Assembly: GCA_016699145.1 (NCBI GenBank)
Contig: CP064962.1
Coordinates: forward strand, 1,050,001-1,082,000
Length of the DNA: 32,000 bases
Source of the DNA: Candidatus Saccharimonadota bacterium
Lineage (GTDB): Bacteria; Patescibacteriota; Gracilibacteria; UBA1369; 2-02-FULL-48-14
Direction of reading: 5' to 3'
Position 1 is the stretch's first letter, and every line of letters starts with the position of its first letter. The translations under genes and the position numbers were made by a program. Below, one piece after another: positions 1 through 17,317 of this stretch. The notes beneath the pieces were generated by a model. That model had not been told where the DNA came from, searched no databases, and saw only the letters and a list, made by a program, of their open reading frames with translations.

Positions 1-612
1 AAATGCGCTGTCAAAACAATTCGTACAATCCTGACTGTATTTTAAATTATAACAATTTTGACAATCCACACATTGATAAAGCAATTCAGATTGCAAAACA
101 TAGGAGCAGTCCACGCAAGATCGGGAGTGTTTAATGACATTTCCATAAAGACAATCTTCATTGAAATCAGAATCAAAAACCAAGTAGCAGTTTTTGTTAT
201 TCCCTGCATAGTTCGTGTAAACACAATTCATCTCAACAATATCACTCGCAGACACTACGTGAGGAAGAGGCACTTGCCGTAGAAGTTCATCGAATTGTTC
301 AAAAAAAGGTCGATTGAAATCGAAGTCTTTCCCATACGAAAGAGGATCCCAACGATCGCCCCACCACTCTTTTTGATCGTAGACCTTATAAGGTTTTTCA
401 GGTGAAATATTTGAAATAAGTTCACGTCCCGTCAGATCACATTTACGATGGTAAAGATTGCGTTCATTACGAAAAATCATTCGTCGTCTCATGCGTTCTT
501 CGGGGCATAAGGTGGGTAAAGGCACATCTATCTTGGCATAAAAAGCCTGATCTTCATCAGTGATGATAAAGGGTTTCGTACTAACCCGACAAATTTTTTC
601 TAATGCAGTCAT
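1..612 (-). CDS. Cys-rich paralog family protein P0, N-terminal 204 codons only (rest lies beyond the window start)
   Basis: My own minus-strand translation from ATG 612-610 stays open to base 1: MTALEKICRVSTKPFIITDEDQAFYAKIDVPLPTLCPEERMRRRMIFRNERNLYHRKCDLTGRE...FDFNRPFFEQF...CVDCQNCYNLKYSQDCTNCFDSAF. It is colinear with the N-termini of P1-P6. ATGA overlap with the P1 stop (609-611). Absent from the ORF track because it runs off the edge. Confidence 0.85.
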   Translation of the reverse strand, partial: MTALEKICRVSTKPFIITDEDQAFYAKIDVPLPTLCPEERMRRRMIFRNERNLYHRKCDLTGRELISNISPEKPYKVYDQKEWWGDRWDPLSYGKDFDFNRPFFEQFDELLRQVPLPHVVSASDIVEMNCVYTNYAGNNKNCYLVFDSDFNEDCLYGNVIKHSRSCVDCSYVLQSELLYQCVDCQNCYNLKYSQDCTNCFDSAF

Positions 613-2255
613 GAATGAAAAAGTTGAGTGTAACAATGATTGCAATAAACTTGCTCGTCCTTCTCAAAAGGCACACGAATCCCTTGCTTGCAGTGTATGC
701 AATTTCGGTCCCACAGTCGCCTTGGATTTCTCAACTTCAACCGATCCAAATAACGTTGTTGAGGGGCCCGTCTCGGCAGTGCAAGCCCCAGACTTTTATA
801 AAGGGTCAGTTCTTGAGGGATGATCTTATAAAGCTTTCCTGAAACCTCGCATTTCAAGATTTGTTTACTGAAATCTTCAGGCACATCTTGAATGGAATCA
901 GGGATAGTTATAAAAGCCCCCTGATAGTTGTCCTCAGGCTTTTCATCAATCCAATTGTATCCTCTGGCCTTTGCCTCCTCAGCAGTCAGCGGGAAGTATT
1001 CTTGTGCCAGTGTTTCATTGTAAGCGAAGGGGCTCAGCGTGGCTGGAAAAAACTCACCCCATTCACCCGTCTTTTTCATCTGATCAATGATTTGTGCTTT
1101 CAACGTTTCAAACTCCTCTTTGGAATATTCTGTATTGAGAATACAGTACTCACTTCGGTGAACTCCCACACAAGCAAAAAGATTTTTGCTGCTTTGGCAT
1201 AAATCTACATAAAGGCTGTCGCTCACATCGTAAGACACGTTTCCGAATTGAATATTCACACTTCGATTGCATCCATGACAGTTGTATTGAAGTTCACAAG
1301 CAAAGGCAGATTCATAAGTATCAAAACAGTCTTTGGCATAGCCTGTTTCATAGCAATAACGACAATCTTGCGAATAAATAACGTCGAAAGAATCAAAAAC
1401 GTTTTTAGACTGATAAATGCAATCTCCCGTACAATTTTCACTGATCAAAATAACAGATTGTTTCGGCGACTTTTGAATCATATTTTCGTACTCGTCCACG
1501 AAGTGTCGCAATTGTGCATAGGACCCCAAATTCACAGTTTTCATAAAGGCTTCATACTCTTCTTTAGTGAGTTGCTTGTTATAAACGCAGTAACTTTTTC
1601 GAATGAGGCCATTGCACATGAAAGAGTCGCTACAGTTGTAGCAGTTGTAAAGAAAAGCAGAATTAGAATTGTTGTCTGAAAGGAAATTATAGAAAGAGTG
1701 ATAGCCTCCGACCACATACTGACATTCGTAACACAGCTCACTTTTTTCAATATTGTAAGAGTCCGCGCAGTCTTTATTTTGAATCATCCATTTGGAATAA
1801 TAGACATTTTCGCAATAAGAAGAATCCACACATAAATAGCAGTTCCGATTGTTCTCTGCATGGTTGGTGTAGTCACAATTTTCACTGTTTTTTTGGACCA
1901 AAGCCAAGCGAGGAACTTTCAATTGCAGTTCTTTCAACTGTTCAAAAAAAGGACGCGAAAAATCAAAAGCTTTTCCAAATATTTTTGCATCCCATTTGTC
2001 TCCCCACCAGCATGAATTGCAATAAACGACGTAAGGCGAGTCTGCACTGTACATCGAAATGATTTGTTTCTCACAAAGGTCACATTTTCGATGATAGAGG
2101 GTGCGTTCATTTCTAAAACTGAGGCGCAATCTTTGCCTTTCATCTGGACACAAAGTCGGCAATGGCACCTGCATTTTCGCATAAAATGCTTGATCATAAT
2201 CATCGATCAAAAATGTTTTCCCACTCACTCGACATGTTTTTGTAATCGGAGTCAT
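609..2255 (-). CDS. Cys-rich paralog family protein P1 (~548 aa), function unknown
   Basis: ORF 609..2279. Start moved to the internal ATG at 2255-2253 (MTPITKTCRVSGK), which overlaps the P2 stop as TGATG. Carries the conserved family blocks: FYAKMQVPLPTLCP, RNERTLYHRKCDLC, FDFSRPFFEQ, TGEWGEFFP, and the C-terminal QELTLYKSLGL..RNPRRLW.RNCIHC. Confidence 0.85.
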   Translation of the reverse strand: MTPITKTCRVSGKTFLIDDYDQAFYAKMQVPLPTLCPDERQRLRLSFRNERTLYHRKCDLCEKQIISMYSADSPYVVYCNSCWWGDKWDAKIFGKAFDFSRPFFEQLKELQLKVPRLALVQKNSENCDYTNHAENNRNCYLCVDSSYCENVYYSKWMIQNKDCADSYNIEKSELCYECQYVVGGYHSFYNFLSDNNSNSAFLYNCYNCSDSFMCNGLIRKSYCVYNKQLTKEEYEAFMKTVNLGSYAQLRHFVDEYENMIQKSPKQSVILISENCTGDCIYQSKNVFDSFDVIYSQDCRYCYETGYAKDCFDTYESAFACELQYNCHGCNRSVNIQFGNVSYDVSDSLYVDLCQSSKNLFACVGVHRSEYCILNTEYSKEEFETLKAQIIDQMKKTGEWGEFFPATLSPFAYNETLAQEYFPLTAEEAKARGYNWIDEKPEDNYQGAFITIPDSIQDVPEDFSKQILKCEVSGKLYKIIPQELTLYKSLGLALPRRAPQQRYLDRLKLRNPRRLWDRNCIHCKQGIRVPFEKDEQVYCNHCYTQLFHS

Positions 2256-2287
2256 CAGTAGATCGTTTTTAAATAACACGCTTCACA
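2231..2287. repeat. Gene-junction repeat, copy at the P2/P1 junction (57 bp, 2 mismatches to 5586-5642)
   Basis: gacatgtttttgtaatcggagtcatcagtaga(tc)gtttttaaataacacgcttcaca compared by eye with the other two junctions. Confidence 0.8.
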
Positions 2288-3913
2288 GAATATCTTTTCA
2301 GGTTGATCCGGTACAAAACTGCTTTGCAGTTGAACTCCGCATGCGCCACAACTGCGCAGCCACAAATGGCGTGGATTACGTTTGGCCAAACGAGCTTTAT
2401 ATCGACAGTCAAAACAATTCACAGGAGCAGCCACACCCAGGTTTTTATAAAGGGCCAACTCTTGTTTGATCACTTTGTAACTCTTCTCACACGTGTAACA
2501 ACACAAAATTTGACTCAAAAGGGTCTCATCCGTGTCTTCAATGCGTGCAGGAGGACTCAATTTTGGTCCCGAATAACTATAATTTTTCTCCTCATCCTTC
2601 CACTTCAAACCGAGAGCCAGCACCTGTTCCCGTACGAGAGGAAAGTATTCCTGTGCCACCGTTTCATTGTAAGCAAAGTAGGCGAGAGATGGAGGGAAAA
2701 ACTCGCCCCATTCACCGGTCTTTTGCATATGCTCAATGATGCGCGGAACCAGAGCTTCATACTCCTCTTTAGTGTATTGCTTGTTCAGAATGCAGTAGCG
2801 CTGTTTGTTCAGTCCAATGCATCCAAAAAGATCCTGAGAATTGTTCACGCAGTAGTGGCAGTAACGCAGGTTGCTCACATCGTTCCAGCATGAATCGGAA
2901 AAAGCGACATTGTAAAAATTATTCCCGCACAAGTGGTTTTCGTAGCCAAGCTCACCCGTGATGCCCCATGCATAACAATCCTGACAGTCACGGCTGTTGT
3001 GGAGCCAGGTGCAGTAGCGACAGTCTTCCAGATGGGTACAGTCATAGGAGTCATAAACATTCTTTGAAAACGCGATATGGTCTCCAGTGAAAGATTCATT
3101 CTGTACACCTGCATAATACTTTTGTGGACATTCCATTTTGAGTGCTTCAAAAGAGTTTTTGGCTTCCAAAAAACGTTCAGGATTTTCGCGAATTTCTTGA
3201 ACTCGTTGCTCATAATCCTCTTTGCTCAATTGTTCGTTGAAAAGACAGTATTCTTTGTTCACGAGCGACACACACCCAAAACAATTTTTACAAGATCGAC
3301 AGTTGTACATGAGAGTCGAATCGCTGCAGCTCTGACAGTTTTGCGAATAGGTCAATCGGTAGCAGGAATAACAGTCGATGCATTCATAACACAGCTCGCT
3401 GTCAAAGATGAAAAAGCAATCCAGCAAATTGCGAGAACGGTGCAAGTAAGTGCAGTAGTAGCAGTCTTCATTGTCGTTACCGGCAAAAACAAGGTAACAA
3501 CTTTTATTACGAGAAGTAAGGTTGGTGAAATCACAATTCTCATTGTCTTTTTGCAGGTTCAAAGCCAAGACCGGCACTTGCTTTTTGAGTTCACCAAACT
3601 GCTCAAAGAAAGGACGAGAAAAATTAAAATCGCGTCCATAGTTCAAGGCATTCCATTTGTCGCTGTAAAAGCAAGGCGGACAATAAACTTGAATCGATTC
3701 ATCTTCATAAATAGACAAAATTTCCTTCTGACAAAGGTCACACTTCCGATGATAGAGTTTTCGCTCATTGCGCCACATGAGACGCCTTCGCATGCGCTCT
3801 TCTGGACACAAAGTCGGCAATGGCACCTGCATTTTTGCATAAAACGCTTGATCATAATCATCAATCAAGAACTCTTTCCCACTCACCCGACATATTTTTG
3901 TAATCGGAGTCAT
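2255..3913 (-). CDS. Cys-rich paralog family protein P2 (552 aa), function unknown
   Basis: ORF 2255..3937. Start taken at ATG 3913-3911 (MTPITKICRVSGK), overlapping the P3 stop as TGATG. I count 43 Cys. No signal peptide or TM segment. Confidence 0.85.
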   Translation of the reverse strand: MTPITKICRVSGKEFLIDDYDQAFYAKMQVPLPTLCPEERMRRRLMWRNERKLYHRKCDLCQKEILSIYEDESIQVYCPPCFYSDKWNALNYGRDFNFSRPFFEQFGELKKQVPVLALNLQKDNENCDFTNLTSRNKSCYLVFAGNDNEDCYYCTYLHRSRNLLDCFFIFDSELCYECIDCYSCYRLTYSQNCQSCSDSTLMYNCRSCKNCFGCVSLVNKEYCLFNEQLSKEDYEQRVQEIRENPERFLEAKNSFEALKMECPQKYYAGVQNESFTGDHIAFSKNVYDSYDCTHLEDCRYCTWLHNSRDCQDCYAWGITGELGYENHLCGNNFYNVAFSDSCWNDVSNLRYCHYCVNNSQDLFGCIGLNKQRYCILNKQYTKEEYEALVPRIIEHMQKTGEWGEFFPPSLAYFAYNETVAQEYFPLVREQVLALGLKWKDEEKNYSYSGPKLSPPARIEDTDETLLSQILCCYTCEKSYKVIKQELALYKNLGVAAPVNCFDCRYKARLAKRNPRHLWLRSCGACGVQLQSSFVPDQPEKIFCEACYLKTIY

Positions 3914-3987
3914 CAGTAGACGGTTTTTAAATAACACGCTTCACACAGCACTTTTTCAGGACGGTTTGGAGCGTAGGTGCTTTGAAT
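3895..3987. repeat. Gene-junction repeat, copy at the P3/P2 junction (93 bp, identical to 5592-5684)
   Basis: tttttgtaatcggagtcatcagtagacggtttttaaataacacgcttcacacagcactttttcaggacggtttggagcgtaggtgctttgaat is present base for base at both places. Confidence 0.9.
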
Positions 3988-5610
3988 CGCAGAAGAACAT
4001 TCTGCACAAGACCGAGGCCACAAGTAACGAGGATTTCGAAGGGCACCACGGTTCAACAGTCTTTGTTCGGGACATATTAAAGGAACCGGCAAATTCATTT
4101 TTCGATAAAAAGCCAACTCTTGCGGGATCACTTTATAAAGTTTTCCGGTCTTGCTACAGCGAAGGATTTGCTTTGTTAGCCCATCCTCTACATCTAGAAT
4201 ACTTTCTGGGATTTTAAGCGCTGGGCCTATGTATTCTTCTTTAGCTTCGTCTTTCTCATACCAGTTCCAACCTTTGGCGAGTACTTGGTCTTTGCTGAGA
4301 GGGATGAGCAAGTGAGCGCTCGTTTCGTTATAAGCATAAGGAGAAATAGAGGAAGGGAAGAACTCGCCCCATTCACCCGTTTTTTGCATGTGCTCGATGA
4401 TGCGGGCCACCATGACGTCGTATTCTTCTTTAGTGTACTGCTTGTTCAAAATACAATATTGGCTTCGGCGCAGACCAAAACAGCCAAAGCAGTCCTTCAC
4501 GGAAGGATAACAGTCATCGCAGTAAATCAAATTAGACACGCCTTGCCAGCAATGATCGCTGAACAGCAAGTTGTAAGCATTCGCCCCACAGGCGTTGCAT
4601 TCATACAAGAGTTCAGCATTGACCCCCCACATGGAATAATCGTAGCAGTACTTCGCTCCATTCAAAATTTCATAGCAATACGCACAACCCTCCAAGTTTT
4701 TGGAGTCATAACAAAAACGAGAATCCTTGCACTGTACCAAGTTGTCTCCAGAAACATCTTCGCATTGAGTGATGTAAGTGGCACGATGAGGCATTGAGAG
4801 CCGAACTGCTTCACTTTGGGCACGGATTTCTTCAATGGATTTATTTGTAAGTTTTAAAGATTTCATTCGCAGCTCCCATTCTTCTTTGCTGAGCGGTTGA
4901 TTGAAGTAGTAATACTGTTTTTGAACGAGTCCATGGCATCCAAAACAATTCTTGCAGTTCTTAAGGTCGGATGAAAAATAACAATCCACACTATTCTCAC
5001 AGTTTTGGCAGAACATACATCCATAGCATGCGAAAAGGCTTACGCCTTCATAGCAGAGCTCGCACTGCTGAATGCGCAGACAATCCACACAATCCTTACA
5101 AGTATTTGCACCTCGTGTGTAGTAAACATCTTCATTATTTTCGGCTTGAGAGAGGAGGTAGCAATTCTTTGAATGATCGGCACAGTTTGTGTAGTCGGAA
5201 TTGACGTCCAGCTGAGGATCCACAAAGAGATTGTGATGAGGCACTGCATCGCAGAGCTCCTTGAACTGCTCAAAAAAAGTACGCTTGAAATCGAAGTCTC
5301 TACCATAGTCTCTAGGATCCCATTTGTCCGAGAGCCATTCTGTGATGTGGTAAACAGGGTAAGGAGATTCGGACTTATGCATAGAGACCATGGATTTTCC
5401 AGTCATAGCACATTTAGCGTGATAGAGGGTTCGTTCGTTTCTAAAGCTTAAACGACGTTGCCAACGACACGTTGGACAAAATTTTGGCGTGGGTATTTGG
5501 AATTTTTTCCCAGCAAAATTAGGACTCATTCGCTCGTAGAAAGCTAGATCTTCTTCATAAACCGTGAAACCAAACTGACAATTTAGACATGTTTTTGTAA
5601 TCGGAGTCAT
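3913..5610 (-). CDS. Cys-rich paralog family protein P3 (~565 aa), function unknown
   Basis: ORF 3913..5634. Start taken at ATG 5610-5608 (MTPITKTCLNCQFG), overlapping the P4 stop as TGATG. The last ~25 codons are identical at the DNA level to those of P4. Confidence 0.85.
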   Translation of the reverse strand: MTPITKTCLNCQFGFTVYEEDLAFYERMSPNFAGKKFQIPTPKFCPTCRWQRRLSFRNERTLYHAKCAMTGKSMVSMHKSESPYPVYHITEWLSDKWDPRDYGRDFDFKRTFFEQFKELCDAVPHHNLFVDPQLDVNSDYTNCADHSKNCYLLSQAENNEDVYYTRGANTCKDCVDCLRIQQCELCYEGVSLFACYGCMFCQNCENSVDCYFSSDLKNCKNCFGCHGLVQKQYYYFNQPLSKEEWELRMKSLKLTNKSIEEIRAQSEAVRLSMPHRATYITQCEDVSGDNLVQCKDSRFCYDSKNLEGCAYCYEILNGAKYCYDYSMWGVNAELLYECNACGANAYNLLFSDHCWQGVSNLIYCDDCYPSVKDCFGCFGLRRSQYCILNKQYTKEEYDVMVARIIEHMQKTGEWGEFFPSSISPYAYNETSAHLLIPLSKDQVLAKGWNWYEKDEAKEEYIGPALKIPESILDVEDGLTKQILRCSKTGKLYKVIPQELAFYRKMNLPVPLICPEQRLLNRGALRNPRYLWPRSCAECSSAIQSTYAPNRPEKVLCEACYLKTVY

Positions 5611-5684
5611 CAGTAGACGGTTTTTAAATAACACGCTTCACACAGCACTTTTTCAGGACGGTTTGGAGCGTAGGTGCTTTGAAT
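5592..5684. repeat. Gene-junction repeat, copy at the P4/P3 junction (93 bp, identical to 3895-3987)
   Basis: Same string as 3895-3987. It spans the first 6-7 codons of the downstream gene, the TGATG overlap and the last ~25 codons of the upstream gene. Confidence 0.9.
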
Positions 5685-7271
5685 AGAAGTTTGACATGCA
5701 TCACAATGGCGAGGCCAAAGTTTGCGAGGATTGCGTTGGGACATCCGTTGCACGTGGCGCTCTTCCGGACAAAGCAAAGGCACTGGGAGCTGCATTTGGC
5801 GATAAAAAGCCAATTCTTGAGGGATGACGCGGTACAGCTTGTCGGTTTTTTTGCAACGCAAAATTTGCTTTAAAATAGCATCATTCACGTCAGAAATCTT
5901 AGCTGGAACCTGCACATCGGGGCCTTTATAATTACTCGACTCGTCATCTTCCTTCCAAGAGTAGCCCATGGATTGAGCCTCTTGCGGGCTGAGAGGGTAA
6001 TAAATGGAAGCCACCGTCTCGTTGTAAGCAAATGCACTCATTGTGCTAGGGAAGAACTCGCCCCATTCACCCGTTTTTTGCATGTGCTCGATGATGCGCG
6101 GAACCAGAACTTCGTACTCTTCTTTGCTGTACTGCTTATTCAAAATGCAGTACGTATTTTTCTTCAGCCCTACACACCCAAATAAATTGGATGAGAACAT
6201 ACAATTATCACAGTACATAAGCTCATCCACTCCCCAACAGGTGTTTGAAAAAAGAACTTTTCGAGCACGATCACCGACGGTAATGGAATCATAAATCAGC
6301 TCAGCTTTAAAGCCCCACACATCATAGTCGTAGCAATCTGTAGCTCCATTGCTGAGGTTGCTGCAAAAATGACAATCACGAACGTCCTGACAATCGAAGG
6401 CAAAAGAACAGTCCTTGGTATTTTTTAAGTAATCCCCTGTGCTGTTTTCATTATTCATATTGTGATCCGCCTTGAATGAAAAATTTAAAAACCATTGTCG
6501 CACTTCTGCCTTTAGTTTTTCCCTGTTCCCGTGCGTATCCAAGTTAAAAGCTGCTATGGTTGCCTCATACGCTTCTTTACTCAGGGGTTTATTAAAAAAA
6601 TAATATTCTTTATTTCGTAATCCCACGCTGCCAAAACAATGGTTACAATTTCTACAATCTCTCAAAAAAGCGCTATCTGTACAATTCTGGCAATCTTGCG
6701 AATTAAACAGTTGATAACATTTTTCACAGTCCACGCATTCGTAACACAGTTCACATTCATAAATTCGAAGACAATCCATTGAACTTTTTGAATACTTACT
6801 GAGATGACTATAATAAACACTTTCTGAGCAATCCGAATCAAAGACTAAATAAGAATCCTTCATGTAGGAAGTTTGATTCACATAATCCGAATTCGTACTA
6901 GAAGCATCATTACAAAGACTGGGATGAGGCGTTGCATAAAGCAGCTCTTTGAACTGCTCAAAAAAGGGACGGTTAAAGTCAAAAGAACGACCTGAGTCAA
7001 GGCCACTCCACCGATCTCCCCACCAGCAAGGATTGCAATAAACTTTGTAAGGAGAACCGGGCCGATACATCGTGATGATTTGTTTTCCACAAAGTTCACA
7101 CTTCCCATGATAGAGGGAACGCTCATTCCTCCAGAGCATACGTCTGCGCTGACGATCTTCTGGACAAAGGGTCGGTAAGGGCACTTCCATCTTCGTATAA
7201 AAAGCCTGATCCACTTCCTCAATGGAAAAGCTATTTTTACACTCCCTACAAGCCTGATCGATAGTTGCCAT
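5610..7271 (-). CDS. Cys-rich paralog family protein P4 (~553 aa), first gene of the head-to-tail array
   Basis: ORF 5610..7286 begins with GTG. The first ATG is at 7271-7269 (MATIDQACRECKNSF). Same block structure as P1-P3. Confidence 0.85.
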   Translation of the reverse strand: MATIDQACRECKNSFSIEEVDQAFYTKMEVPLPTLCPEDRQRRRMLWRNERSLYHGKCELCGKQIITMYRPGSPYKVYCNPCWWGDRWSGLDSGRSFDFNRPFFEQFKELLYATPHPSLCNDASSTNSDYVNQTSYMKDSYLVFDSDCSESVYYSHLSKYSKSSMDCLRIYECELCYECVDCEKCYQLFNSQDCQNCTDSAFLRDCRNCNHCFGSVGLRNKEYYFFNKPLSKEAYEATIAAFNLDTHGNREKLKAEVRQWFLNFSFKADHNMNNENSTGDYLKNTKDCSFAFDCQDVRDCHFCSNLSNGATDCYDYDVWGFKAELIYDSITVGDRARKVLFSNTCWGVDELMYCDNCMFSSNLFGCVGLKKNTYCILNKQYSKEEYEVLVPRIIEHMQKTGEWGEFFPSTMSAFAYNETVASIYYPLSPQEAQSMGYSWKEDDESSNYKGPDVQVPAKISDVNDAILKQILRCKKTDKLYRVIPQELAFYRQMQLPVPLLCPEERHVQRMSQRNPRKLWPRHCDACQTSIQSTYAPNRPEKVLCEACYLKTVY

Positions 7272-7358
7272 AAAATAATCTATCACTTATGGCAAGTATA
7301 GCGGAAAATGTAAAAATATACCTAATAAAAGCTTGAAAAAAGTCATACAGCAGATTAG

Positions 7359-7374
7359 AATTTCTGTAGAAATT
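7359..7374. promoter_or_regulatory. Perfect 7-2-7 palindrome AATTTCT-gt-AGAAATT in the P4/trmB-like divergent intergenic region (candidate operator)
   Basis: Read directly; ends 24 nt upstream of the TrmB-like ATG (7398). Confidence 0.3.
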
Positions 7375-7397
7375 ATTTTACAACATCAACAAAATCC

Positions 7398-8156
7398 ATG
7401 CTCCAGGAGAAACTCACCGAATTCGGCCTCTCAGAAGAAGAGGCGCAAGTCTACCTCACGGTACTTGAACTCGGAGGTTCTTTTGCCAGCACCATCGCGA
7501 GCAAGGCTAAAATTCCACGCGTAAATTGTTATTACGTTCTTGAAAGTCTGCGCAAACGGGGACTCATCACCACCAACCTCAAGGGGAGCGTGAAATTTTT
7601 CGTAGCGGAGCCACCTCAAGTGCTCGTGAACCAAATGGAATCCCAATACGAAAGCGCAAAAAAACTGCTCCCTGAACTGCTCACACTGACCAACGCGCAA
7701 GCCTTCAAACCCATCATTCGCTCCTACGAAGGCCTCGAAGGCATCAAAACCATCTTTGAACAATCTCTCGAAGCCAAGTCAGAAGTGCTCGGTTACACCA
7801 ATCTCGAAGCCCTCGGAAGACTCTTGCCGGACTACCTCCCTGGCTTCTTTCAAAAACTCGTCAAAAAACGCATCAAAACCCGCCTGCTCTCTCCATCCAC
7901 CGAAGAAGCTCGTCAATTCATCGAGCGCTTTTACCCTAAAAAATACCCTGAAGAACTTGTGGAAGTGCTTTTTGTGAACCCCAAGGAATTCAAATTTGAA
8001 AACCAGATTTCCATTTATGACAACGTCGTGGCCATCACCTCCATGAACCCCGAAGAACTCATTGGCGTGGTGATCGAATCCGCTGTTTACGCCCGCACCC
8101 AACGCGCAGTTTTCAATCTTTCTTGGCTCGGAGCCACGGCTTTTGTGGCTCAGTAA
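7398..8156 (+). CDS. TrmB-family transcriptional regulator (N-terminal winged helix-turn-helix)
   Basis: The N-terminus MLQEKLTEFGLSEEEAQVYLTVLELGGSFASTIASKAKIPRVNCYYVLESLRKRGLI has the typical TrmB wHTH pattern. 252 aa. ATG start. Confidence 0.75.
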   Translation: MLQEKLTEFGLSEEEAQVYLTVLELGGSFASTIASKAKIPRVNCYYVLESLRKRGLITTNLKGSVKFFVAEPPQVLVNQMESQYESAKKLLPELLTLTNAQAFKPIIRSYEGLEGIKTIFEQSLEAKSEVLGYTNLEALGRLLPDYLPGFFQKLVKKRIKTRLLSPSTEEARQFIERFYPKKYPEELVEVLFVNPKEFKFENQISIYDNVVAITSMNPEELIGVVIESAVYARTQRAVFNLSWLGATAFVAQ

Positions 8157-8218
8157 ACTTGTTTTAAATAGCAGTTCAAACAATAAATGATCTTCTCTTC
8201 GCTTTGATCTGTCCAAGC
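8150..8218 (-). pseudogene. Displaced 3' end (22 codons plus stop) of paralog P5, separated from the gene body by IS insertion
   Basis: Minus-strand translation is AWTDQSEEKIIYCLNCYLKQVY*, the family C-terminal motif (E..(I/V)YC..CYLK.VY). It joins in frame to ...CRKCGQS at 10446 once the IS and one TSD copy are removed. Confidence 0.8.
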
Positions 8219-8329
8219 CTAAAAAGACCCCAGTTTTAAGAGAGTGAATTGGAGATTTTGTTTTAGGGTAAGGCTAAAATGGGTGTTAAATTTTGAAGAA
8301 CCACCTTTAAAAAATAACAGATTTTAGCC

Positions 8330-8960
8330 ATGAACAAATATATCCAAGATTTCATTACAAATAAATGCCGAAGTATATTTACAGGTTTAACCCTGCCACA
8401 GAAGAAGGCCTTGGCTGAAGTACTTAGAGGACTTTTCGTAGAAGCCACCCCTATACTTCGGCATTTAGCCCAAAACAAAGAGGTTTCAGCAAAGAAGCAA
8501 GGGAACAAGTACTCTCATCATCTTGGGAATGTTGATTTACAGAAGAAAGTGGAGGATTTCTCAGTAAGAGCTGTAGCTTCTGAAATTCGTAAAAACACAG
8601 TGATTGCTTATGATCTCGTAGATCTTTCCAAACCTTCCGCAAAGAAGATGGAGAAATTGTCACAAGTATATGATTCGAGTGAAGGGAGCATTGAACCTGG
8701 TTTTCTTTTGCATGGAGTGGGCGTGAACAATCTGCTCCTAAAACTGCGTTTTCATCACAATGATAAAGAGTTCTTGGGACAGGTTAGGAAGGCTATTTTG
8801 GAGGAACTCACCCAGGTTTTTGATCATAAAGGCATTTTTGTCTTTGATCGTGGCAACGACGATGAGAAACTTTTTAGAGATCTTCGTCAGGTCTTAAAAG
8901 TGCAATTTATCGCAAGAGTAAGGGAAAACAGAACGGTTGTGCTTAAGGAAACTGGGGTCT
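8330..8960 (+). pseudogene. IS4-like DDE transposase, N-terminal fragment (interrupted)
   Basis: ORF 8330..8995. Candidate catalytic Asp contexts at VIAYDLVDLSK and IFVFDRGNDD. The reading frame is broken at 8960 by the nested IS. Confidence 0.75.
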
Positions 8961-9896
8961 GTTTTGTAATCAATAGCTTTGCATCACTTCGTTAGGAGTT
9001 AGCATGTGAAGACCCATGTGAGGACGTTCAAAATTGTAATAGTGAAGGAAGTCAGGGATTGCTTTTTTTGTAAGCCTCTAAAGTCTTTGGGACTCGGGAG
9101 AGGCATTCCTCCTGGATGGTTCTGTTGAATCTCTCCACATAGGCATTGTCTGTGGGTGTTCGTACTCTTGAATGCCTGTGCTGAATTTCATTAGCTACAA
9201 GCGTTTTAGTGAGCCACTTGGAAAACTCACTTCCATGGTCTGTCTGGATCATTTTAAGTTCAAAGGGCATGTCTTCTTGTGAGTGCTGAATAAACTCCCA
9301 ACTTGCGTGGGTTCCAATCTTCATCACCGGCATAGCAGAGGCCCATCTGCTGCACACGTCCAGCATAGTGTATACATAAAGTCTGTCATAATAAGGCCCA
9401 TCCACAATCGTGTCTATTTGCACCAATATGCCTGGTTTTTCAGGCCGCGGTCTTTCCTCATACTGGTGCCACTTCTTCCACTTGCTGTATTTGGTCATCT
9501 CGTTCCTTTTGAGTGTTCTCTTCACACTGGAAAGACTCACTTCGTAGCCATCTCTTTCCAGAAAATAGTGAATCACTTCTGCACACCGCTGGTACTTGAG
9601 TCTGTACTCTATGACTTTCTGCACTGTCTCTGCAGAAAGCTCACTGGGGTGCGAATGGGGACGTGAGCTTTCTGTGGGAATGGTGTGGCCATAGTTATTG
9701 CCTCTGAGCTTTTCCACCCACCGCACAATGCTGCTTTGGTTAAAACCTGTGTGTCTGGCCACTTCGCGTGTGCTCCAGCCTTTTTCCAGAACTAACTTTG
9801 CTGCCTCCATTCGCACCCGAGGCAGATGGGGATTTTGTGTGTATGCCATGTCCATATCTTTGCACAGGGGTGATGCAAAGCTATTGAACCATTACA
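8961..9896 (-). mobile_element. IS481-like insertion sequence nested inside the IS4-like transposase gene (~936 bp)
   Basis: Imperfect 27-bp terminal inverted repeats with an 18-bp perfect core: caatagctttgcatcac at 8971-8987 and gtgatgcaaagctattg at 9870-9886; outer end TGTAAT/ATTACA. 6-bp duplication GGGTCT at 8955-8960 and 9897-9902. Ends are uncertain by a few bp. Confidence 0.8.
9052..9855 (-). CDS. IS481-family transposase (HTH plus rve/DDE integrase core)
   Basis: 267 aa. N-terminal HTH (GWSTREVARHTGFNQSSIVRW). DDE contexts LVQIDT, MIQTDHGSEF, DNAYVERFNRTIQEE. Confidence 0.8.
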   Translation of the reverse strand: MDMAYTQNPHLPRVRMEAAKLVLEKGWSTREVARHTGFNQSSIVRWVEKLRGNNYGHTIPTESSRPHSHPSELSAETVQKVIEYRLKYQRCAEVIHYFLERDGYEVSLSSVKRTLKRNEMTKYSKWKKWHQYEERPRPEKPGILVQIDTIVDGPYYDRLYVYTMLDVCSRWASAMPVMKIGTHASWEFIQHSQEDMPFELKMIQTDHGSEFSKWLTKTLVANEIQHRHSRVRTPTDNAYVERFNRTIQEECLSRVPKTLEAYKKSNP

Positions 9897-9901
9897 GGGT
9901 C

Positions 9902-10438
9902 TTGATTTCTGTGAAAGAGTTGCCTGAAGGAAGCTACGAAGTGTTTTTGATGAAAAATGGAAAAGTGCTTGGGGATCTTTGCCACAATCTGCTCATACGG
10001 AACCATCTGGAAGGGAAAGAACCCATAAGGCTCATCTACTCACTCAAGGATTCATATACTGCAGAGCAGATTGTGAATTTGTATCTGGAAAGATGGGGAA
10101 TTGAAAAGAGTTTTAAGAGAGTGAAGCAAAAGTTCCAGTTGGAGAAAATCCGTGTGCTTAGCCTGAAAAAGTTTATCAATTTGATTGCTCTGACTCAATT
10201 TGCAATGAACCTCTCTGTTCTTATGTTTAGGAAAGTCCAAGCTCTCACTCACAGTCTGGTTACTTCTGTTGTTTCCAACTACAAGGGGTTCATTGCAAAG
10301 AAATCACTCACCTTTAACCTGGAATCTTTCATAACTTTTCTCCAGAATTCTCTACAGTCACTCCAATTTCATGCCCCTCCAAAACGCCAACCCTCCCTCT
10401 TCTCATTCAGGCAACTGAAAAAACTGGGGTCTTTTTAG
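9902..10438 (+). pseudogene. IS4-like DDE transposase, C-terminal fragment
   Basis: The 3' part of ORF 9698..10438 contains the Y-2-R-3-E-6-K signature of IS4-type transposases (YLERWGIEKSFKRVK). Deleting 8961-9902 fuses it in frame to 8330-8960 (KETGV|LISVKELPEG), giving ~388 aa. Confidence 0.75.
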
Positions 10439-11996
10439 TCCAAGCGGATTGACCACATTTGCGACAGGTCGTCTGGTGGAGTGCATAAGGGTTCCGTCGA
10501 GCTAGACGTTTTTCGTGACGCACATCTGGATGCAGGCTCGGGCGGGGCAAACCCATTTGTGCGTAAAACTTGAGCTCTTGTGGAACCAGTCTAAATGTGC
10601 GACCAGACTCGCGGCACTTCACCATATTCTCACCCTCCGCCTCTAGCGGAGCCACTTCTTCCATGTCGTGCCAGTGATACCCTTGGGCAAGCGCTTGTTC
10701 TTTAGTGAGAGGCTGAAGGAGCATCGCGCAACTTTCGTTGTAGCCTACATTTGATAAAGCGGCAGGGAAAAATTCACCCCACTCGCCCGTCTTTCTCATG
10801 TGCTCTACAATCCGTGGCACCAAGGCTTCATACTCTTCTTTGGTGTATTGCTTATTCAAAATACAGTAAGCATTTTTCTTCATGCCGATGCAGCCGAACA
10901 AATTCTGATTTCCGTTGTAAACGACCATCGAATAATAGACATCGCTGTTGCCACCGATCACCGCATAAGAAAAATAGACCCCGTTATTCATCCCATGGGA
11001 CAGCACCTCGTAACCCACTTCCGCCTTGGTGGCAAAGTCCACATCCATAAGATCTTTGGAGCCTTCAGCTTGAGTGACATTACGCAAGTCTTCCCCATCC
11101 ACAATATCGAAGGAATAATGAATGTTGCGACTGCCAAAGACGTAACTTCCCACCACATTTTCCGAATTAAAAATATTCAGTGCCCGCACAGGAGATTTTT
11201 TTTGATGCTCCTCAAAAGCATGACGTGCACGTTCATACGACTCCGCAGTTCCATCCAAATACTCCGCGATTCTTTTTTGATATTCTTCCTTATTCAGTGG
11301 CTGGTTGAAGAAATAATATTGTTTTTGAGCGAGTCCCACACATCCAAAACAATCACTGCATCCACTCATGTCCGCACAAAAATAAAGATCATGGCAGCCC
11401 TTAGAGCGCTCGGTAGCCATACAGTGATAGCAAGCTTGGCAGTCAATGCATTCGTAACAAAGCTCACAAGAATTGATGTCATAACAATCCATCGAAGAAC
11501 GCGACTGAATAGCCATGTAGCTATAATAAATATCCTCGGAATTCATGAGACGAGAAGACAAAAAGCTGTTCCGACTTTGTAAAGTGAAGGCCGTGTAATC
11601 GCAGTTTTCAGAGTTCACCACCGAAGAAGCAGGCCGGGGTACCACTTTTGAGAGCTCAGCAAATTGTTCAAAAAAGGGACGACTGAAATCGAACTCTCGC
11701 CCATAAGCCAGTGGATCGTAGGCATCGCTCCACCACACATCGATGGCATAGATGGGGTACTCCTTGTCGGGCGAATTAATAGAAATAATATCTCGTCCGG
11801 TCTTGCTGCACTTACGCTTGTAGAGGTGTCTATCGTTTCGGAAAGAATAACGGCGTTGTCGGCGGCACGGGGCACAGAGTCGAGGCTCCGGAATATCCAG
11901 TCGCTGGCCCGCCAGCGAGGGTGTGATTTTCTTAAGGAATTCCTCATCTTGAGGCGTCCATTCAAAGTTCAACTCGCAATGAATACAATTTTTCAT
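10407..11996 (-). CDS. Cys-rich paralog family protein P5, 3'-truncated by the IS insertion (reads into the IS end)
   Basis: ORF 10407..12017, with the likely ATG at 11996 (MKNCIHCELNF). Family blocks are present. The C-terminus ...CRKCGQSAWTKKTPVFSVA* departs from the family consensus exactly at the IS boundary. The second half of the core has lost most of its cysteines. Confidence 0.8.
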   Translation of the reverse strand: MKNCIHCELNFEWTPQDEEFLKKITPSLAGQRLDIPEPRLCAPCRRQRRYSFRNDRHLYKRKCSKTGRDIISINSPDKEYPIYAIDVWWSDAYDPLAYGREFDFSRPFFEQFAELSKVVPRPASSVVNSENCDYTAFTLQSRNSFLSSRLMNSEDIYYSYMAIQSRSSMDCYDINSCELCYECIDCQACYHCMATERSKGCHDLYFCADMSGCSDCFGCVGLAQKQYYFFNQPLNKEEYQKRIAEYLDGTAESYERARHAFEEHQKKSPVRALNIFNSENVVGSYVFGSRNIHYSFDIVDGEDLRNVTQAEGSKDLMDVDFATKAEVGYEVLSHGMNNGVYFSYAVIGGNSDVYYSMVVYNGNQNLFGCIGMKKNAYCILNKQYTKEEYEALVPRIVEHMRKTGEWGEFFPAALSNVGYNESCAMLLQPLTKEQALAQGYHWHDMEEVAPLEAEGENMVKCRESGRTFRLVPQELKFYAQMGLPRPSLHPDVRHEKRLARRNPYALHQTTCRKCGQSAWTKKTPVFSVA

Positions 11997-12222
11997 TATA
12001 TTCAGCCTAGCAAACATTTCAGGGATTTGTCAGGAGCTTTTCGGTACAATCTGAAATGCTTAACCTTTACACATGAAAACAAGATGTTCACGTTGGACCA
12101 CGCGAAAGGAAGCCAAAGATAAAAATGGCTACCGTCATCCCCAAGTCAAAAGGCAAGAGTTAAAAATGAATCAAGAAGAGCAGGAGGTTTACTTGAAGGG
12201 TAATTTTCAGTATCTTAAATCC

Positions 12223-12483
12223 ATGCAAAGTTCTATCCTCAATTATTTAGTTTTCTTCAAAGAAGAACCCGAAGGAGGTTTTACAGTTCTTGTGCCAAGT
12301 TTGCAAGGATGCGTTAGCTACGGAGAGAATCTGGAAGAAGCCAAAAGAATGGCTGAGGAAGCTATATTGCTTTACATAGAAGATTTGATTGAATCTGGAG
12401 AAGAGGTGCCTTCCGATGAAAAAGCTTTTTCCTTGTCCATAAAAATCACCAAACCAGCCAAGAGAAAAGAACAATATGCCTAA
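12223..12483 (+). CDS. hicB: HicB-family antitoxin (UPF0150-type)
   Basis: YLVFFKEEPEGGFTVLVPSLQGCVSYGENLEEAKRMAEEAILLYIEDL matches the HicB N-terminal domain pattern. Overlaps hicA by 8 nt. The start is uncertain (ATG at 12223, 12166 or 12073). Confidence 0.7.
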   Translation: MQSSILNYLVFFKEEPEGGFTVLVPSLQGCVSYGENLEEAKRMAEEAILLYIEDLIESGEEVPSDEKAFSLSIKITKPAKRKEQYA

Positions 12484-12688
12484 ATTGCCCACTTTTAATT
12501 CCAAGGAACTCATTGGCTTCCTTGAAAAGATAGGTTTTGTAATTCGACGAACTTCAGGAAGTCACGTCATTTTGTTTAACGAAAAAAAGAAACGTCGTGC
12601 AGTTGTTCCATTCCATAAGAAAGAATTGCCTCGAGGAACGCTCCATTCTATTTTGAAAGAGGCAGGAGTTTCAAAAAAAGATCTTTAG
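12476..12688 (+). CDS. hicA: HicA-family mRNA interferase toxin (YcfA-like)
   Basis: 70 aa: MPKLPTFNSKELIGFLEKIGFVIRRTSGSHVILFNEKKKRRAVVPFHKKELPRGTLHSILKEAGV. This shows the characteristic HicA length and the G-S-H and P-H-...-L-...-G-T motifs. Confidence 0.8.
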   Translation: MPKLPTFNSKELIGFLEKIGFVIRRTSGSHVILFNEKKKRRAVVPFHKKELPRGTLHSILKEAGVSKKDL

Positions 12689-12703
12689 AGGCCATCTCAA
12701 AAA

Positions 12704-14353
12704 TCAGTACACCACTCCCAAATAACACTCCTCGCAGTACACGATTTCAGGTTGTTCTGGGGCATAAGAAGTATGAATGGATTTTCCGCAGCGGACACAA
12801 TTTCGCTCCCACGTTTGGATAGGGTTTCGAAGCGCGATGCGCATTTCGTTGCGCGTCTCAGGTGCATAGTGAGGAATAGGAACGCCCATCTTGCGATAGA
12901 AAGCCAATTCTTGAAGGATGATGCGATACGGTCGCCCCGTTTTTTCACAAACTAAAGCAGAATCTAAAATGGAATCGGTGACTGCACTCAAAGCATCTGG
13001 GATGAAAGGGGCATTCGCAAGGTCATGTTTTTCTTCATTCAACCACTGATAGCCCTGAGCCAAAGCCTCTTCCTTTGTGAGAGGATAGTAGTCCTGAGCG
13101 ACCGTTTCATTGTAAGCAAATTTAGAATTTTGAATTGGGAAAAATTCACCCCACTCACCAGTCTTTTTCATGTGCTCGACGATGCGAGGCACCAGAGTTT
13201 CATACTCTTCTTTGCTGTACTGCTTGTTGAGGATGCAATACTGCGCTCGCTTCATATTGCAGCAGCCAAAAAGGTTTGAAGAATGCACCACCATGTCGCA
13301 ATAATAAGTGTCTTGAGAGGACCAAGAGAAAGTGCAGAAGGCACAGCGACTGCCTTCAATAGATCCGACCATTTCGTAATAAAGTTCAGCCTTGTAACCC
13401 GCATGATCGCAACTCAAAACATCATGGATGCCCCAGCCGCCAAAAAAGATGTCTTTGCAATCCTCAGCAGGCCCATCAATCCCAAAACAATTCTGACAAT
13501 TTTTAGCATTCGTCACAAAGTCTCCCGTGCAGTTTTCAGCATTGACCATACGCGCGTAGCGATGCGGAAATTGTAGGCGAAATTTTTCAAATTCACTTTT
13601 GAGATATTGCACACTTTTCCACGAAAGCAAATCGTACTGACTCACGATGCGTTGGTATTCTTCGGGGGAGTAAGGCTTATTGAAAATATGATGCTTTTTG
13701 TTGATGAGACCCACGCATCCAAAACAATCTTCACAATTGCGACATTCATATAAAAAAGCGCTGTTACGACAACTCACGGAACCTCGTGAGTAGCGCAGGG
13801 AGTAAGAGCTGTGACAATCCACGCAGTCGTACATCAGCTCACAACTGGTGCACCAATAGCAGTCCACATTGTCCACTCCCTTCATGGAGAAAACACTGTA
13901 AAGAGAATCTTGGGAGTAATCTCCGCCGAAGACCAAGTAACAGTTTTTATTGCCTGTAGTCACATTGCAAAACTCACTATTTTCACCGTTCACATTGATA
14001 AGTCCAATGTGTGGAACGGCCAATTGCAGTTCGCGAAATTGCTCAAAAAAAGGACGGTTGAAATCAAAATCGCGACCATAACTTTTAGAGTCCCATTGAT
14101 CGCTCCACCATGCTTCTTGTGAGTAAACTTTAAAAGGCTTGTCCGGCGAATACACAGAGACCATCGGTTTTCCGGTGAGCGCACAAATGTCTTTATAAAT
14201 CTTCCGCTCATTACGATATGAAAGGCGTCGTCGATGTCGCTCTTCAATACTCAAAGTTGGGGTAGGGATCGCATAAAGAAATTTATTGAGCAGAGCCAGT
14301 TCCCAATCACTGACATCGAAAGATTTTCCGGTGATTTTGCAGATTCTTTGCAT
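12704..14353 (-). CDS. Cys-rich paralog family protein P6 (549 aa), function unknown
   Basis: ORF 12704..14353 with an ATG start (MQRICKITGKSF). Colinear with P1-P5. Starts 4 nt after the stop of the upstream flavoprotein gene. Confidence 0.85.
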   Translation of the reverse strand: MQRICKITGKSFDVSDWELALLNKFLYAIPTPTLSIEERHRRRLSYRNERKIYKDICALTGKPMVSVYSPDKPFKVYSQEAWWSDQWDSKSYGRDFDFNRPFFEQFRELQLAVPHIGLINVNGENSEFCNVTTGNKNCYLVFGGDYSQDSLYSVFSMKGVDNVDCYWCTSCELMYDCVDCHSSYSLRYSRGSVSCRNSAFLYECRNCEDCFGCVGLINKKHHIFNKPYSPEEYQRIVSQYDLLSWKSVQYLKSEFEKFRLQFPHRYARMVNAENCTGDFVTNAKNCQNCFGIDGPAEDCKDIFFGGWGIHDVLSCDHAGYKAELYYEMVGSIEGSRCAFCTFSWSSQDTYYCDMVVHSSNLFGCCNMKRAQYCILNKQYSKEEYETLVPRIVEHMKKTGEWGEFFPIQNSKFAYNETVAQDYYPLTKEEALAQGYQWLNEEKHDLANAPFIPDALSAVTDSILDSALVCEKTGRPYRIILQELAFYRKMGVPIPHYAPETRNEMRIALRNPIQTWERNCVRCGKSIHTSYAPEQPEIVYCEECYLGVVY

Positions 14354-14357: not shown

Positions 14358-15644
14358 TTAAATAGGCCACTTATTAAATAAATCCCGCACCAAACTCAGC
14401 GCATACTTCATAAGCAAGGGGAAATTCCTCCACTTGAGCACCACCGAAATCAGACTTTTGTTACGATCTTTGCTGTCACAAAATTGGTAGAGGAAACTTT
14501 CTTTTTCACGTTCAATCACCTTCCATAGAGCAAAGAAACTGCGATTGCTCTTCATGCGTTCCCAAATGAAACGATACAGAACTTGCTTGCGATAATAGCG
14601 CATCAATCGGCCATACTTTTGAATCTCCGAATGAAAGCGTCCTAGTGCCGCACGATCCCCCTTCAAATGCTCCGAAATCAACTTGGCACTCACCATTCCA
14701 GAAACCAGCGCGCCCTTGATGCCATCTGCCGCAAAAGCGCCACAAAGTCCAGCGGCATCACCCAGCAAAAGCGAGTGTTCATCATGAACCGTTTTTAAAG
14801 GCCCACCAATGGGGATCAAATGTCCAAAAGTCAAAATTTCTTTAGTGCCAGGCTCGATTTCAATCATCTTTTTCTCTTTTAAAACTTCAATAAAATCTTT
14901 GATTCGGCCGATGTCTTTGGAGTCTTCTTTGAGCTTTGCAAGCCCCAAACGAAAAGCTGCTTTACCATCGATTTCCGTTGGAGAAAGCCACCCTCCGTAA
15001 CCCAGCGAAAACTCTCCAAACCAAAAATGGTAGACCGTAAGATCTGGATGAGGACCAAGCATGATTTTTCCGTAAAAAACTTTCTCCACACCCGCCAAAA
15101 ATTCCTTGTTTTTGGAGAGCCGAGGATTCACCTGCGCTACTCGCGACAAACTTCCATCTGCACCCACAATAAAGCGCGCCTGTACTTCGTGACGTGTGCC
15201 ATCATTCACGTACAAAACGCGCACCGGATGCTCGGCCTCCGTCGGCACTCGCTGCTGTTCGCCTGCTTCCACCTTATATTCCGTGAATTGCGATGCAATT
15301 TTTAAAGTCACATTCGAAGGCAAATTTTTAGATAAATGCTCCAAAATTGCAGGTGTATCGGTACTATAAATCCATGGGTCTTTGGTGTGCGAAAAAAAGT
15401 AATGTTCGTAGTCGGGAGCCACCACACCAATGGTCGTGATGCGATTGGGAATGTATCGATCCAGCTCCGGCAAAAAAGATTTCAAAAGTTGATAAGTGTG
15501 CTCGGTAATCAGCCCCGTCGATTCCACGGATTGATTGAGCTCGCGTTTCATGTCCAAAATCAGCACTTTCAAATGAGAAGGCAGATGGTGGGCGAGACTC
15601 AGCCCGGCAAAACTGGCCCCAATGATGACGACGTCATACTGCAT
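14358..15644 (-). CDS. FAD-dependent oxidoreductase, geranylgeranyl-reductase-like
   Basis: N-terminal dinucleotide fold MQYDVVIIGASFAGLSLA, later LLLGDAAGLCGAFAADGIKGA (GDAAG motif). 428 aa. Confidence 0.7.
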   Translation of the reverse strand: MQYDVVIIGASFAGLSLAHHLPSHLKVLILDMKRELNQSVESTGLITEHTYQLLKSFLPELDRYIPNRITTIGVVAPDYEHYFFSHTKDPWIYSTDTPAILEHLSKNLPSNVTLKIASQFTEYKVEAGEQQRVPTEAEHPVRVLYVNDGTRHEVQARFIVGADGSLSRVAQVNPRLSKNKEFLAGVEKVFYGKIMLGPHPDLTVYHFWFGEFSLGYGGWLSPTEIDGKAAFRLGLAKLKEDSKDIGRIKDFIEVLKEKKMIEIEPGTKEILTFGHLIPIGGPLKTVHDEHSLLLGDAAGLCGAFAADGIKGALVSGMVSAKLISEHLKGDRAALGRFHSEIQKYGRLMRYYRKQVLYRFIWERMKSNRSFFALWKVIEREKESFLYQFCDSKDRNKSLISVVLKWRNFPLLMKYALSLVRDLFNKWPI

Positions 15645-15650
15645 GGGCGC

Positions 15651-15679
15651 AGTCTAAAGCTCAAAAAGGACTCACGCAA
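15651..15679 (-). promoter_or_regulatory. Candidate promoter TTGCGT-17-TAGACT, 6 nt before the flavoprotein ATG (leaderless-type)
   Basis: Reverse complement of 15651-15679, read by eye. No Shine-Dalgarno sequence. Confidence 0.35.
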
Positions 15680-15708
15680 GGCGGTTGCTTTCAGGTTAGA
15701 AATCCCGG

Positions 15709-15714: not shown

Positions 15715-15724
15715 ACCCACATAT

Positions 15725-17011: not shown

Positions 17012-17017
17012 AAGCCT

Positions 17018-17308: not shown

Positions 17309-17317
17309 AGAAAAAAG

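Follow-up and report, generated by a model that had tools for sequence, protein, structure and literature searches.

Seven adjacent genes on the minus strand of a 32,000 bp stretch of a Candidatus Saccharimonadota genome (GCA_016699145.1, contig CP064962.1, positions 1,050,001 to 1,082,000; hereafter “the window”) encode versions of one cysteine-rich protein. The question raised by this locus is what so many versions of one protein, kept side by side, might do. We favor the explanation, with a probability of roughly 0.45, that the paralogs (P0 to P6) form a co-expressed panel of binding or adaptor proteins that would be controlled by a TrmB-like repressor and would work with a soluble VirD4-like ATPase. 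The protein architecture and the gene module have no characterized counterpart, and the parts (zinc fingers, a solenoid, a TrmB regulator and a P-loop ATPase) are familiar ones. No description of the family was found in the searchable literature.

The array and the age of its paralogs

The seven open reading frames (ORFs) lie between positions 1 and 14353, at the same coordinates as in the original prediction, an earlier reading of the window from its sequence. That reading of seven colinear minus-strand paralogs of about 550 amino acids is borne out by the ORF coordinates and by an alignment of the seven copies, which are colinear end to end and mutually 38-50% identical. P0 (1-612) comprises the N-terminal 204 amino acids of a further member, as judged from positions 3-201 of the family hidden Markov model (HMM) and from the alignment, and both its gene and the array extend beyond the left window edge. 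The genes P1 (609-2255, 548 amino acids), P2 (2255-3913, 552 amino acids), P3 (3913-5610, 565 amino acids) and P4 (5610-7271, 553 amino acids) come next. The P4 product has the same sequence as “hypothetical protein IPG41_05890,” an NCBI entry from Candidatus Peregrinibacteria that is encoded on a 1.34-Mb contig. P4 heads the five-gene run, and within this run the genes overlap by one nucleotide, as TGATG, at P4/P3, P3/P2 and P2/P1, and as ATGA at P1/P0. These four overlapping junctions are the usual signature of a single operon with translational coupling, as which we would read the run. The main part of P5 (10439-11996) is followed by an insertion sequence (IS), into which the present ORF runs until a stop at 10407, and P6 (12704-14353) encodes 549 amino acids.

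Cysteine is abundant in all copies. P2 has 43 cysteines in 552 amino acids and 17 CxxC motifs, so the previously noted content of about 8% describes this copy well. It does not describe the others, which have 24-41 cysteines (4.5-7.3%), and the range across all copies is 4.5%-7.8%. The median for the family is 38 cysteines per protein.

The first search recovered >7,000 related proteins at E ≤ 1e-3. An exhaustive profile search gave 5,944 representatives of 50%-identity clusters at E ≤ 1e-3 and 2,511 at E ≤ 1e-30, and nearly all of the representatives are 545-570 amino acids long and match end to end. Their source annotations are just “hypothetical protein” or “zinc-ribbon domain containing protein.” The family is almost wholly confined to Patescibacteria, also known as the candidate phyla radiation (CPR), where its main host genomes are those of Peregrinibacteria/Peribacteria, Gracilibacteria and Parcubacteria-type lineages. 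Hits among species-representative genomes were distributed over Peregrinibacteria/Peribacteria, Gracilibacteria, Abawacabacteria, Nomura-, Giovannoni- and Staskawiczbacteria, Paceibacterota and a few genomes labeled Saccharibacteria. Outlying hits came from a few Bdellovibrionota and one “Micrarchaeota” genome that is probably misbinned. A phage origin of the family was ruled out, as there were zero hits in 50,697 phage genomes and a single partial hit in IMG/VR.

To describe gene context, ORFs were called in 82 loci and scanned with the family HMM. Gracilibacteria use genetic code 25. Two or more copies occur within ~20 kb in 56 of the 82 loci (maximum 10), almost all of them co-oriented, and 26 loci have a single copy; the table-11 ORF calls split some Gracilibacteria copies (e.g., in locus L025), so copies are undercounted there. 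Two loci of one assembly (L027 and L031) together contain at least 18 family ORFs. Within a locus, the median of the best identity between copies is 45% and the highest value is 68%, with none >70%. For 94% of the genes a closer relative, at a median identity of 59%, was found in another genome rather than in the same array. The window locus is syntenic with L003, L013, L020 and L033, and orthologs of P6 (57-62% identity) occur in L013, L020 and L033 at the same position relative to a TrmB-like gene. Because identity within loci is low, closer relatives are found elsewhere and P6 orthologs hold a conserved position, we infer that the paralog sets are old and individually maintained, and are not recent expansions, gene-conversion products or accessory DNA. 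The ratio of nonsynonymous to synonymous substitution rates among the copies, a measure proposed with the original prediction, was rejected because paralogs that are 38-50% identical and nearest orthologs that are at most 62% identical have saturated synonymous sites.

Two of the single-copy loci, both in contexts that are not of CPR type, encode unusual family proteins. In one, a rare fusion joins a GNAT acetyltransferase to a family protein (P0147; L083, 8001-10196), and its gene is located directly after der/EngA and near genes for RNase III, a MiaB-like protein and MnmA. In the other, a family protein with a 258 amino acid low-complexity tail (P0239; L085, 3976-6402) is encoded after sdhCAB. 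The GNAT fusion and a FeeM-like neighbor in a Bdellovibrionota genome were considered as functional links and dropped, given that neither recurs.

Predicted fold and the role of the cysteines

The proteins share the layout A-R-R′-M-A′, in which A is followed by a linker (FDFxRPFFEQ), R, a helical hairpin, R′, M (GEWGEFFP...YNET) and A′. When profiles of the sub-alignments were compared using hhalign, A (residues 7-83) matched A′ (472-548) with a probability of 99.8 (E 1.6e-28) and R (132-236) matched R′ (280-388) with a probability of 99.9 (E 4e-31). Based on these matches and on structural models, A and A′ are predicted to be homologous basic, arginine-rich double treble-clef zinc modules and R and R′ homologous acidic β-solenoids. 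The charges are +4 for the A core, +6 for the A′ core, -6 for R, -5 for R′ and -4 for M, and the median isoelectric point is 6.2. AlphaFold2 gave confident models for P4 (mean predicted local distance difference test score, pLDDT, 87.9; predicted template modeling score, pTM, 0.88) and P2 (pLDDT 91.8, pTM 0.90). In the P2 model the strands of R recur every 12 residues (at ~140, 152, 164, 176, 188, 200, 212 and 224). A turn takes 12 residues in R and 13 in R′, the consensus unit of R is C-[YF]-x-C-x-x-C-x-x-C-x-x, and the autocorrelation of cysteine positions peaks at 3, 6, 9 and 12. Mutual-information couplings, computed on 490 sequences (effective number 368), are independent of the models. 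Many of the top pairs are separated by 12 columns in R and by 13 in R′, the spacing that contacts between neighboring turns would produce. Another cluster links R with R′ (columns 132/144/156 with 304/317), and further pairs couple the terminal modules to the body. From these couplings, the two small solenoids would lie side by side in one compact particle.

As the original prediction had it, the family cannot be placed among known ones: no curated model or solved structure covers the protein. Among Pfam, NCBIfam, PADLOC and PDB-sequence models none spans it, and the only matches are sub-threshold ones to treble-clef zinc fingers at the termini. The window paralogs score 12.7-20.8 bits against PF23477 and PF13451, below the gathering cutoff of 27. 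Among 80 relatives, PF23477 was matched at E ≤ 0.01 by 57 (best E 1.2e-8) and PF13451 by 14. The window copies score 14.8-17 bits against TIGR04272, for which the cutoff is 36, and the CxxC-x17-CxxC spacing is exact at C523/C526/C544/C547 of P4. The terminal modules resemble zf_Tbcl/zf_Tbcl_2 (PF13451, PF23477) and TIGR04272 in having a CxxC...CPxCR half and a CxxC-x17-CxxC half with exact spacing. However, those are small stand-alone proteins or domains of unknown function and cover ~160 of the 550 residues of the family.

Foldseek searches against PDB and BFVD returned zero matches at E ≤ 0.001. The weak matches that recurred were to phage zinc ribbons and to left-handed β-helix enzymes. The latter are acyltransferases and related proteins (LpxD, GlmU, LpxA and γ-carbonic anhydrase) that share local β-solenoid geometry with the family at E 3e-3 or worse, probability ≤ 0.38 and TM-score ≤ 0.12. 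Left-handed β-helices have 18 residues per turn and a hexapeptide motif, whereas the family has 12-13 residues per turn and no match to the Hexapep HMM, and membership in this class was rejected. Beetle antifreeze β-helices also have 12 residues per turn and cysteines in the core, and they are small secreted proteins with obligatory i/i+6 disulfides. The family differs in having cysteine at every third residue, no paired co-variation and no signal peptide, and no match of the beetle antifreeze type was found by Foldseek in PDB or BFVD.

Hydropathy analysis of the 490 members revealed no transmembrane-like or signal-like hydrophobic segment in 486, in agreement with the earlier statement that the family lacks both, and by this measure the proteins are predicted to be cytoplasmic. 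Cys, Gly, Pro, Asn, aromatic residues and duplicated Asp/Arg pairs make up most of the columns that are conserved at ≥93%. Among these columns there is no catalytic-looking constellation of His, Ser, Lys or Glu. The most variable parts are the outward-facing solenoid positions and the hairpin.

The cysteines appear to fall into two classes, and the original suggestion that they are metal ligands applies to one of them. The terminal modules have up to four Cys4 sites, of which the window copies each have one to three complete (Zn2 and Zn4 in P1; Zn2, Zn3 and Zn4 in P2; Zn1 and Zn4 in P3; only Zn4 in P6). Their ligand sets are all-or-none, with correlations of r ~1.0 for HMM columns 60/78/81, 0.89 for 10/38 and 0.92 for 476/504, and columns 523/526/544/547, the C-terminal CxxC-x17-CxxC, are 98-100% conserved. 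Because they are kept or lost as sets (r = 0.89-1.0), the cysteines of the terminal modules are plausibly metal ligands. Small proteins of the archaeon M. mazei with a CxxC-x17-CxxC motif bind Zn, as determined by inductively coupled plasma mass spectrometry (PMC12704099).

The suggestion fails for the solenoid cysteines, which number ~25 and are the majority. Their presence is weakly correlated (r ≤ 0.41), mostly with the column 12 positions away. They are 26-93% conserved and disappear singly, with Ser, Val, Leu, Ile, Ala, Thr or Gly in their place, and not His, Asp or Glu. The ladder columns have an entropy of 1.83 bits, compared with 2.39 bits for other solenoid columns, and reconstructed P5 has just 2 cysteines in R′. 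Because they vary independently, are replaced by residues such as Ser, Val and Leu and are reduced to two in R′ of P5, the solenoid cysteines are best read, from the alignment, as small apolar core residues of a Cys/Ser/aliphatic ladder, and not as obligatory ligands or disulfide partners. Membership among ferredoxin-like or poly-Fe-S proteins was rejected, as there is no match to Fer4 models and the central cysteines are 26-93% conserved and substituted singly. A disulfide-rich secreted repeat protein was likewise rejected, since 486 of the 490 members lack an N-terminal hydrophobic region and pairs of solenoid cysteines reach r ≤ 0.41. The solenoid would be a clean example of cysteine serving as a core residue that is neither ligand nor disulfide, and it advises caution about “metal-binding” calls made from cysteine content.

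Large secreted cysteine-rich proteins of 580-3,860 amino acids, mostly with signal peptides and with pappalysin/FG-GAP-like annotations, have been reported from Ca. Peribacter riflensis (PMC4736985, Table S4). They resemble the proteins described here in phylum, in high cysteine content and in gene clustering, and they are a separate family. The “14-gene cysteine-rich cluster” of Ca. Peribacter (PMC4736985) was therefore rejected as a prior description, as it encodes large secreted proteins of another kind.

Regulator, ATPase and flanking genes

Between P4 and P5 the window encodes a 252 amino acid winged helix-turn-helix regulator of TrmB type (7398-8156, plus strand), which is divergent from P4 and convergent with P5. 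Its PF01978 score of 58 bits is above the cutoff of 25.6. Homologs of ~253 amino acids occur in 39-41 of the 82 loci at a median distance of 122 bp, 91% of them on the opposite strand and divergent, and a TrmB-like gene precedes 27 of 85 arrays and 12 of the 20 large ones. The palindrome TGTAGAAATTATTTTACA (7365-7382; consensus TGTAGAA-N4-TTCTACA) ends 16 bp before the ATG of the window gene (7398). It is found immediately upstream of the TrmB-like start in the window and in L001, L003, L004, L005, L008, L011, L012, L016, L018, L033, L049, L050 and others. Across 1.4 Mb of loci there are 18 such sites with at most one arm mismatch, and 17 are in intergenic regions between TrmB-like and family genes. 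This 18 bp palindrome is probably an operator. A promoter scan placed a promoter-like site at 7333-7361, with the palindrome just downstream, and the location of the putative operator between that site and the ATG is the geometry of autorepression.

Other elements were seen in these intergenic regions. Several share CTGTTGGACA, which is nearer to the family genes and resembles a -35 element. In the window a 9 bp inverted repeat, TTGCCATAA-N13-TTATGGCAA (7265-7295), extends across the P4 start codon (7269-7271) and was unseen in the other loci read. In two loci a same-strand ORF of 110 amino acids of the tRNA_bind type (PF01588, CsaA/Trbp111-like) separates the first family gene from the TrmB-like gene (L012, 5038-5370; L033, 8022-8354), and the one in L012 ends 5 bp before the family gene.

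The second recurrent neighbor is an ATPase of ~747 amino acids, encoded in 20 of the 82 loci on the same strand as the array at a median of 89 bp downstream. Among the 68 arrays that could be evaluated, 12 are directly followed by this gene (within 600 bp, same strand). The ATPase matches T4SS-DNA_transf (Pfam E 6e-11), TrwB_AAD_bind, TraG-D_C and DUF87, and weakly the NCBIfam VirD4-like CD1115 model; its scores are far under the equivalog cutoffs. It thus resembles the coupling proteins of type IV secretion systems (T4SSs), VirD4, TraD and TrwB, and differs from them in that hydropathy revealed no transmembrane segment in any of the array-adjacent ~747 amino acid ATPases. The family resembles no known T4SS substrate. 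The ATPase loci are labeled Peregrinibacteria/Peribacteria, Gracilibacteria, Staskawiczbacteria and Saccharibacteria, and the typical order of a TrmB-like gene facing away from the family genes, which are then followed by the ATPase, was found in loci of all four labels. In searches of the ATPase, PADLOC returned weak matches to mad8 and HerA, and no PADLOC model matched P2 or P4. The ATPase (L018, 13393-15633, with homologs in 20 loci) also has a strong match to the phage family phrog_5156 (E 1.4e-68), and gp156 of Bacillus phage G is a distant one. In a survey of patescibacterial T4SSs, only 148 of 5,713 VirD4-type ATPases were near virB4, and the ATPases were described as “possibly exapted” (PMC12102498). 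The family is a first genomic partner for these “orphan” VirD4-like ATPases, which that survey left unexplained.

No third recurrent partner was detected among 94 flanking proteins and 129 Pfam families, none of which occurs in more than four loci. The 25 families listed for flanking proteins include no T4SS channel family; VirB4 was not specifically searched for. On the right side of the array (14358-25533), the window encodes a FAD-binding reductase-like protein, a nucleotidyltransferase with hexapeptide repeats, subunits of a pyruvate/2-oxoacid:ferredoxin oxidoreductase, PurN, the α and β chains of L-serine dehydratase and enolase. The flanks are thus housekeeping genes of core metabolism. 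A 612 amino acid ORF further along (28448-30286, plus strand) has no Pfam match at E ≤ 0.001, and a scan of the whole window gave zero tRNA or Rfam matches.

The disruption of P5 by an IS, reported earlier, was confirmed. The outer element (8219-10438; 2,220 bp) has 19 bp perfect terminal inverted repeats, a split DDE transposase (ORFs 8330-8995 and 9698-10438) and a 7 bp target duplication, TCCAAGC. Nested in it is a second element (8970-9887) with 18 bp inverted repeats and an rve transposase (9052-9855). The C-terminus that P5 has lost is kept as a detached 3′ end on the minus strand (8150-8218), which ends in AWTDQSEEKIIYCLNCYLKQVY before the stop and includes the left copy of the target duplication (8212-8218). 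With the IS and one copy of the duplication taken out, the ORF is intact again at 539 amino acids. A hicB-hicA toxin-antitoxin pair (12073-12688, plus strand; HicA 72 bits) is located between P5 and P6 on the opposite strand, and in other genomes MazF, AbiEii and ORF6N genes are similarly found inside or beside arrays (L017, L020 and others). The IS elements, hicBA and comparable toxin-antitoxin and ORF6N genes are secondary insertions, and the IS is no part of the system. An earlier view of the locus as variable or accessory genome is not sustained, given the conserved and dedicated TrmB-like neighbor and its putative operator, the ancient paralogs and the housekeeping flanks.

Competing explanations and what the arrays may mean

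If the paralogs are a panel of binding or adaptor proteins, each would be a non-enzymatic, zinc-stabilized scaffold. Its constant parts would provide a common chassis and its variable solenoid surfaces would recognize a target specific to that paralog; this division is suggested because the conserved columns do not look catalytic and variability is concentrated in the outward solenoid positions and the hairpin. The paralogs would be made together under the TrmB-like repressor and would serve the VirD4-like ATPase as adaptors or specificity subunits, or be its clients, and the bound partner may be nucleic acid or protein. Several observations count against this explanation. Binding of nucleic acid or protein would be deduced from charge and fold class only, and several invariant Asp/Glu-Arg pairs (D21-R40, E486-R505) may form salt bridges within the protein instead of taking part in binding. 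The solenoid part of the P4 model, with pLDDT 67-89, is less confident than the rest. The best-conserved central cysteines (columns 205/208/211/214 and 357/366/375, 81-97% conserved) could form a metal site, perhaps a capping one. With the ATPase following 12 of 68 arrays and the TrmB-like gene preceding 27 of 85, the partnership is frequent and not obligatory. The ATPase was not seen in this window, where the array crosses the left edge.

The paralogs could instead be subunits of one hetero-oligomeric assembly, such as a filament, ring or cage, joined through the A/A′ end modules, with the ATPase as an assembly or remodeling factor. The stop/start overlaps suggest stoichiometric co-production, fixed sets of ancient and individually conserved paralogs are typical of hetero-complex subunits, and the homologous modules at both ends and the compact rigid particle (pTM 0.88-0.90) are also consistent with this. 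Since copy number ranges from 1 to 10 per locus, 26 of the 82 loci have a single copy and a few genomes not of CPR type have one copy in unrelated contexts, we regard such an assembly as possible, if doubtful. It seems unlikely that a type IV-like route exports the proteins to the cell surface or into a host, with the VirD4-like coupling protein recognizing them, possibly via the arginine-rich C-terminal module, and disulfides forming outside the cell. The ATPase next to the genes lacks a membrane anchor, and most patescibacterial genes for type IV coupling proteins (T4CPs) are far from virB4 (PMC12102498). Further, the solenoid cysteines do not co-vary in pairs, the C-terminus is modeled as a folded zinc finger with no flexible tail and the paralogs are old and conserved, not fast-evolving. 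What speaks for export is the adjacency of a VirD4/TraD-like ATPase in itself, the lack of a Sec signal, as in T4SS substrates, the basic C-terminal module, the tRNA_bind/CsaA-like ORF between the TrmB-like and family genes in two loci and the fact that the host-interaction proteins of symbionts typically come in paralog families.

A role in defense against phage or mobile elements, with diversified sensor paralogs acting alongside a HerA/VirD4-like ATPase, is hinted at by the weak mad8 and HerA matches of the ATPase and by the toxin-antitoxin and Abi genes (hicBA, MazF, AbiEii, ORF6N) and IS elements that recur in or beside arrays. We consider it improbable, as the family has no match among PADLOC models, phage genomes lack it and IMG/VR nearly does, the flanking genes are housekeeping ones and the syntenic order of ancient paralogs is unlike the patchy, fast turnover of defense genes. 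There is similarly little likelihood that the paralogs are enzymes with paralog-specific substrates that modify, for example, RNA or protein. The FDFxRPFFEQ and GEWGEFFP..YNET motifs could line a pocket, tRNA_bind ORFs are adjacent in two loci, a FeeM-like acyltransferase gene is upstream in a Bdellovibrionota genome and one GNAT-family fusion is located in a der/RNase III/MiaB-like/MnmA neighborhood. However, that fusion is a single case with no recurrence, columns conserved at ≥93% lack a His/Ser/Lys/Glu constellation and no enzyme fold was matched beyond local β-helix geometry. Last, most of the ~40 cysteines could ligate Zn, Fe-S clusters or other metals in a protein for storage, electron transfer or metallochaperone function. 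A high density of CxxC motifs, including CxxCxxCxxCxxC runs, in a cytoplasmic protein whose terminal sites do behave as ligand sets would be expected of such a protein. The solenoid cysteines, at 26-93% conservation, are lost singly; what replaces them is Ser, Val, Leu, Ile or Ala, with no preference for His, Asp or Glu, and P5 as reconstructed has 2 cysteines in R′. No ferredoxin, HdrB or metallothionein model matched, and CxxCxxCxxxCP was not seen in the alignment or in an 80-sequence consensus, as judged by reading and with no dedicated motif scan. A general metal or redox role is thus very improbable.

A bolder version of the panel of binding proteins, to which we would give rather low odds, is that the arrays and the soluble VirD4-like ATPase constitute an unrecognized cytoplasmic machine that is widespread in Patescibacteria, in which the paralogs would select different DNA, RNA or protein cargos for a translocase or remodeler that runs on ATP. 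If true, this would explain the thousands of patescibacterial T4CP genes that are located away from type IV secretion channels, and it would define a new solenoid fold that is built on a cysteine ladder with 12 residues per turn. About 70% of the length of the family has no curated domain model, and its members are diverse and number in the thousands. Patescibacteria genomes are ~1 Mb in size, so the retention of multiple copies likely matters to the lifestyle of these bacteria. By our estimate the 18 family ORFs in one assembly amount to roughly 3% of such a genome.

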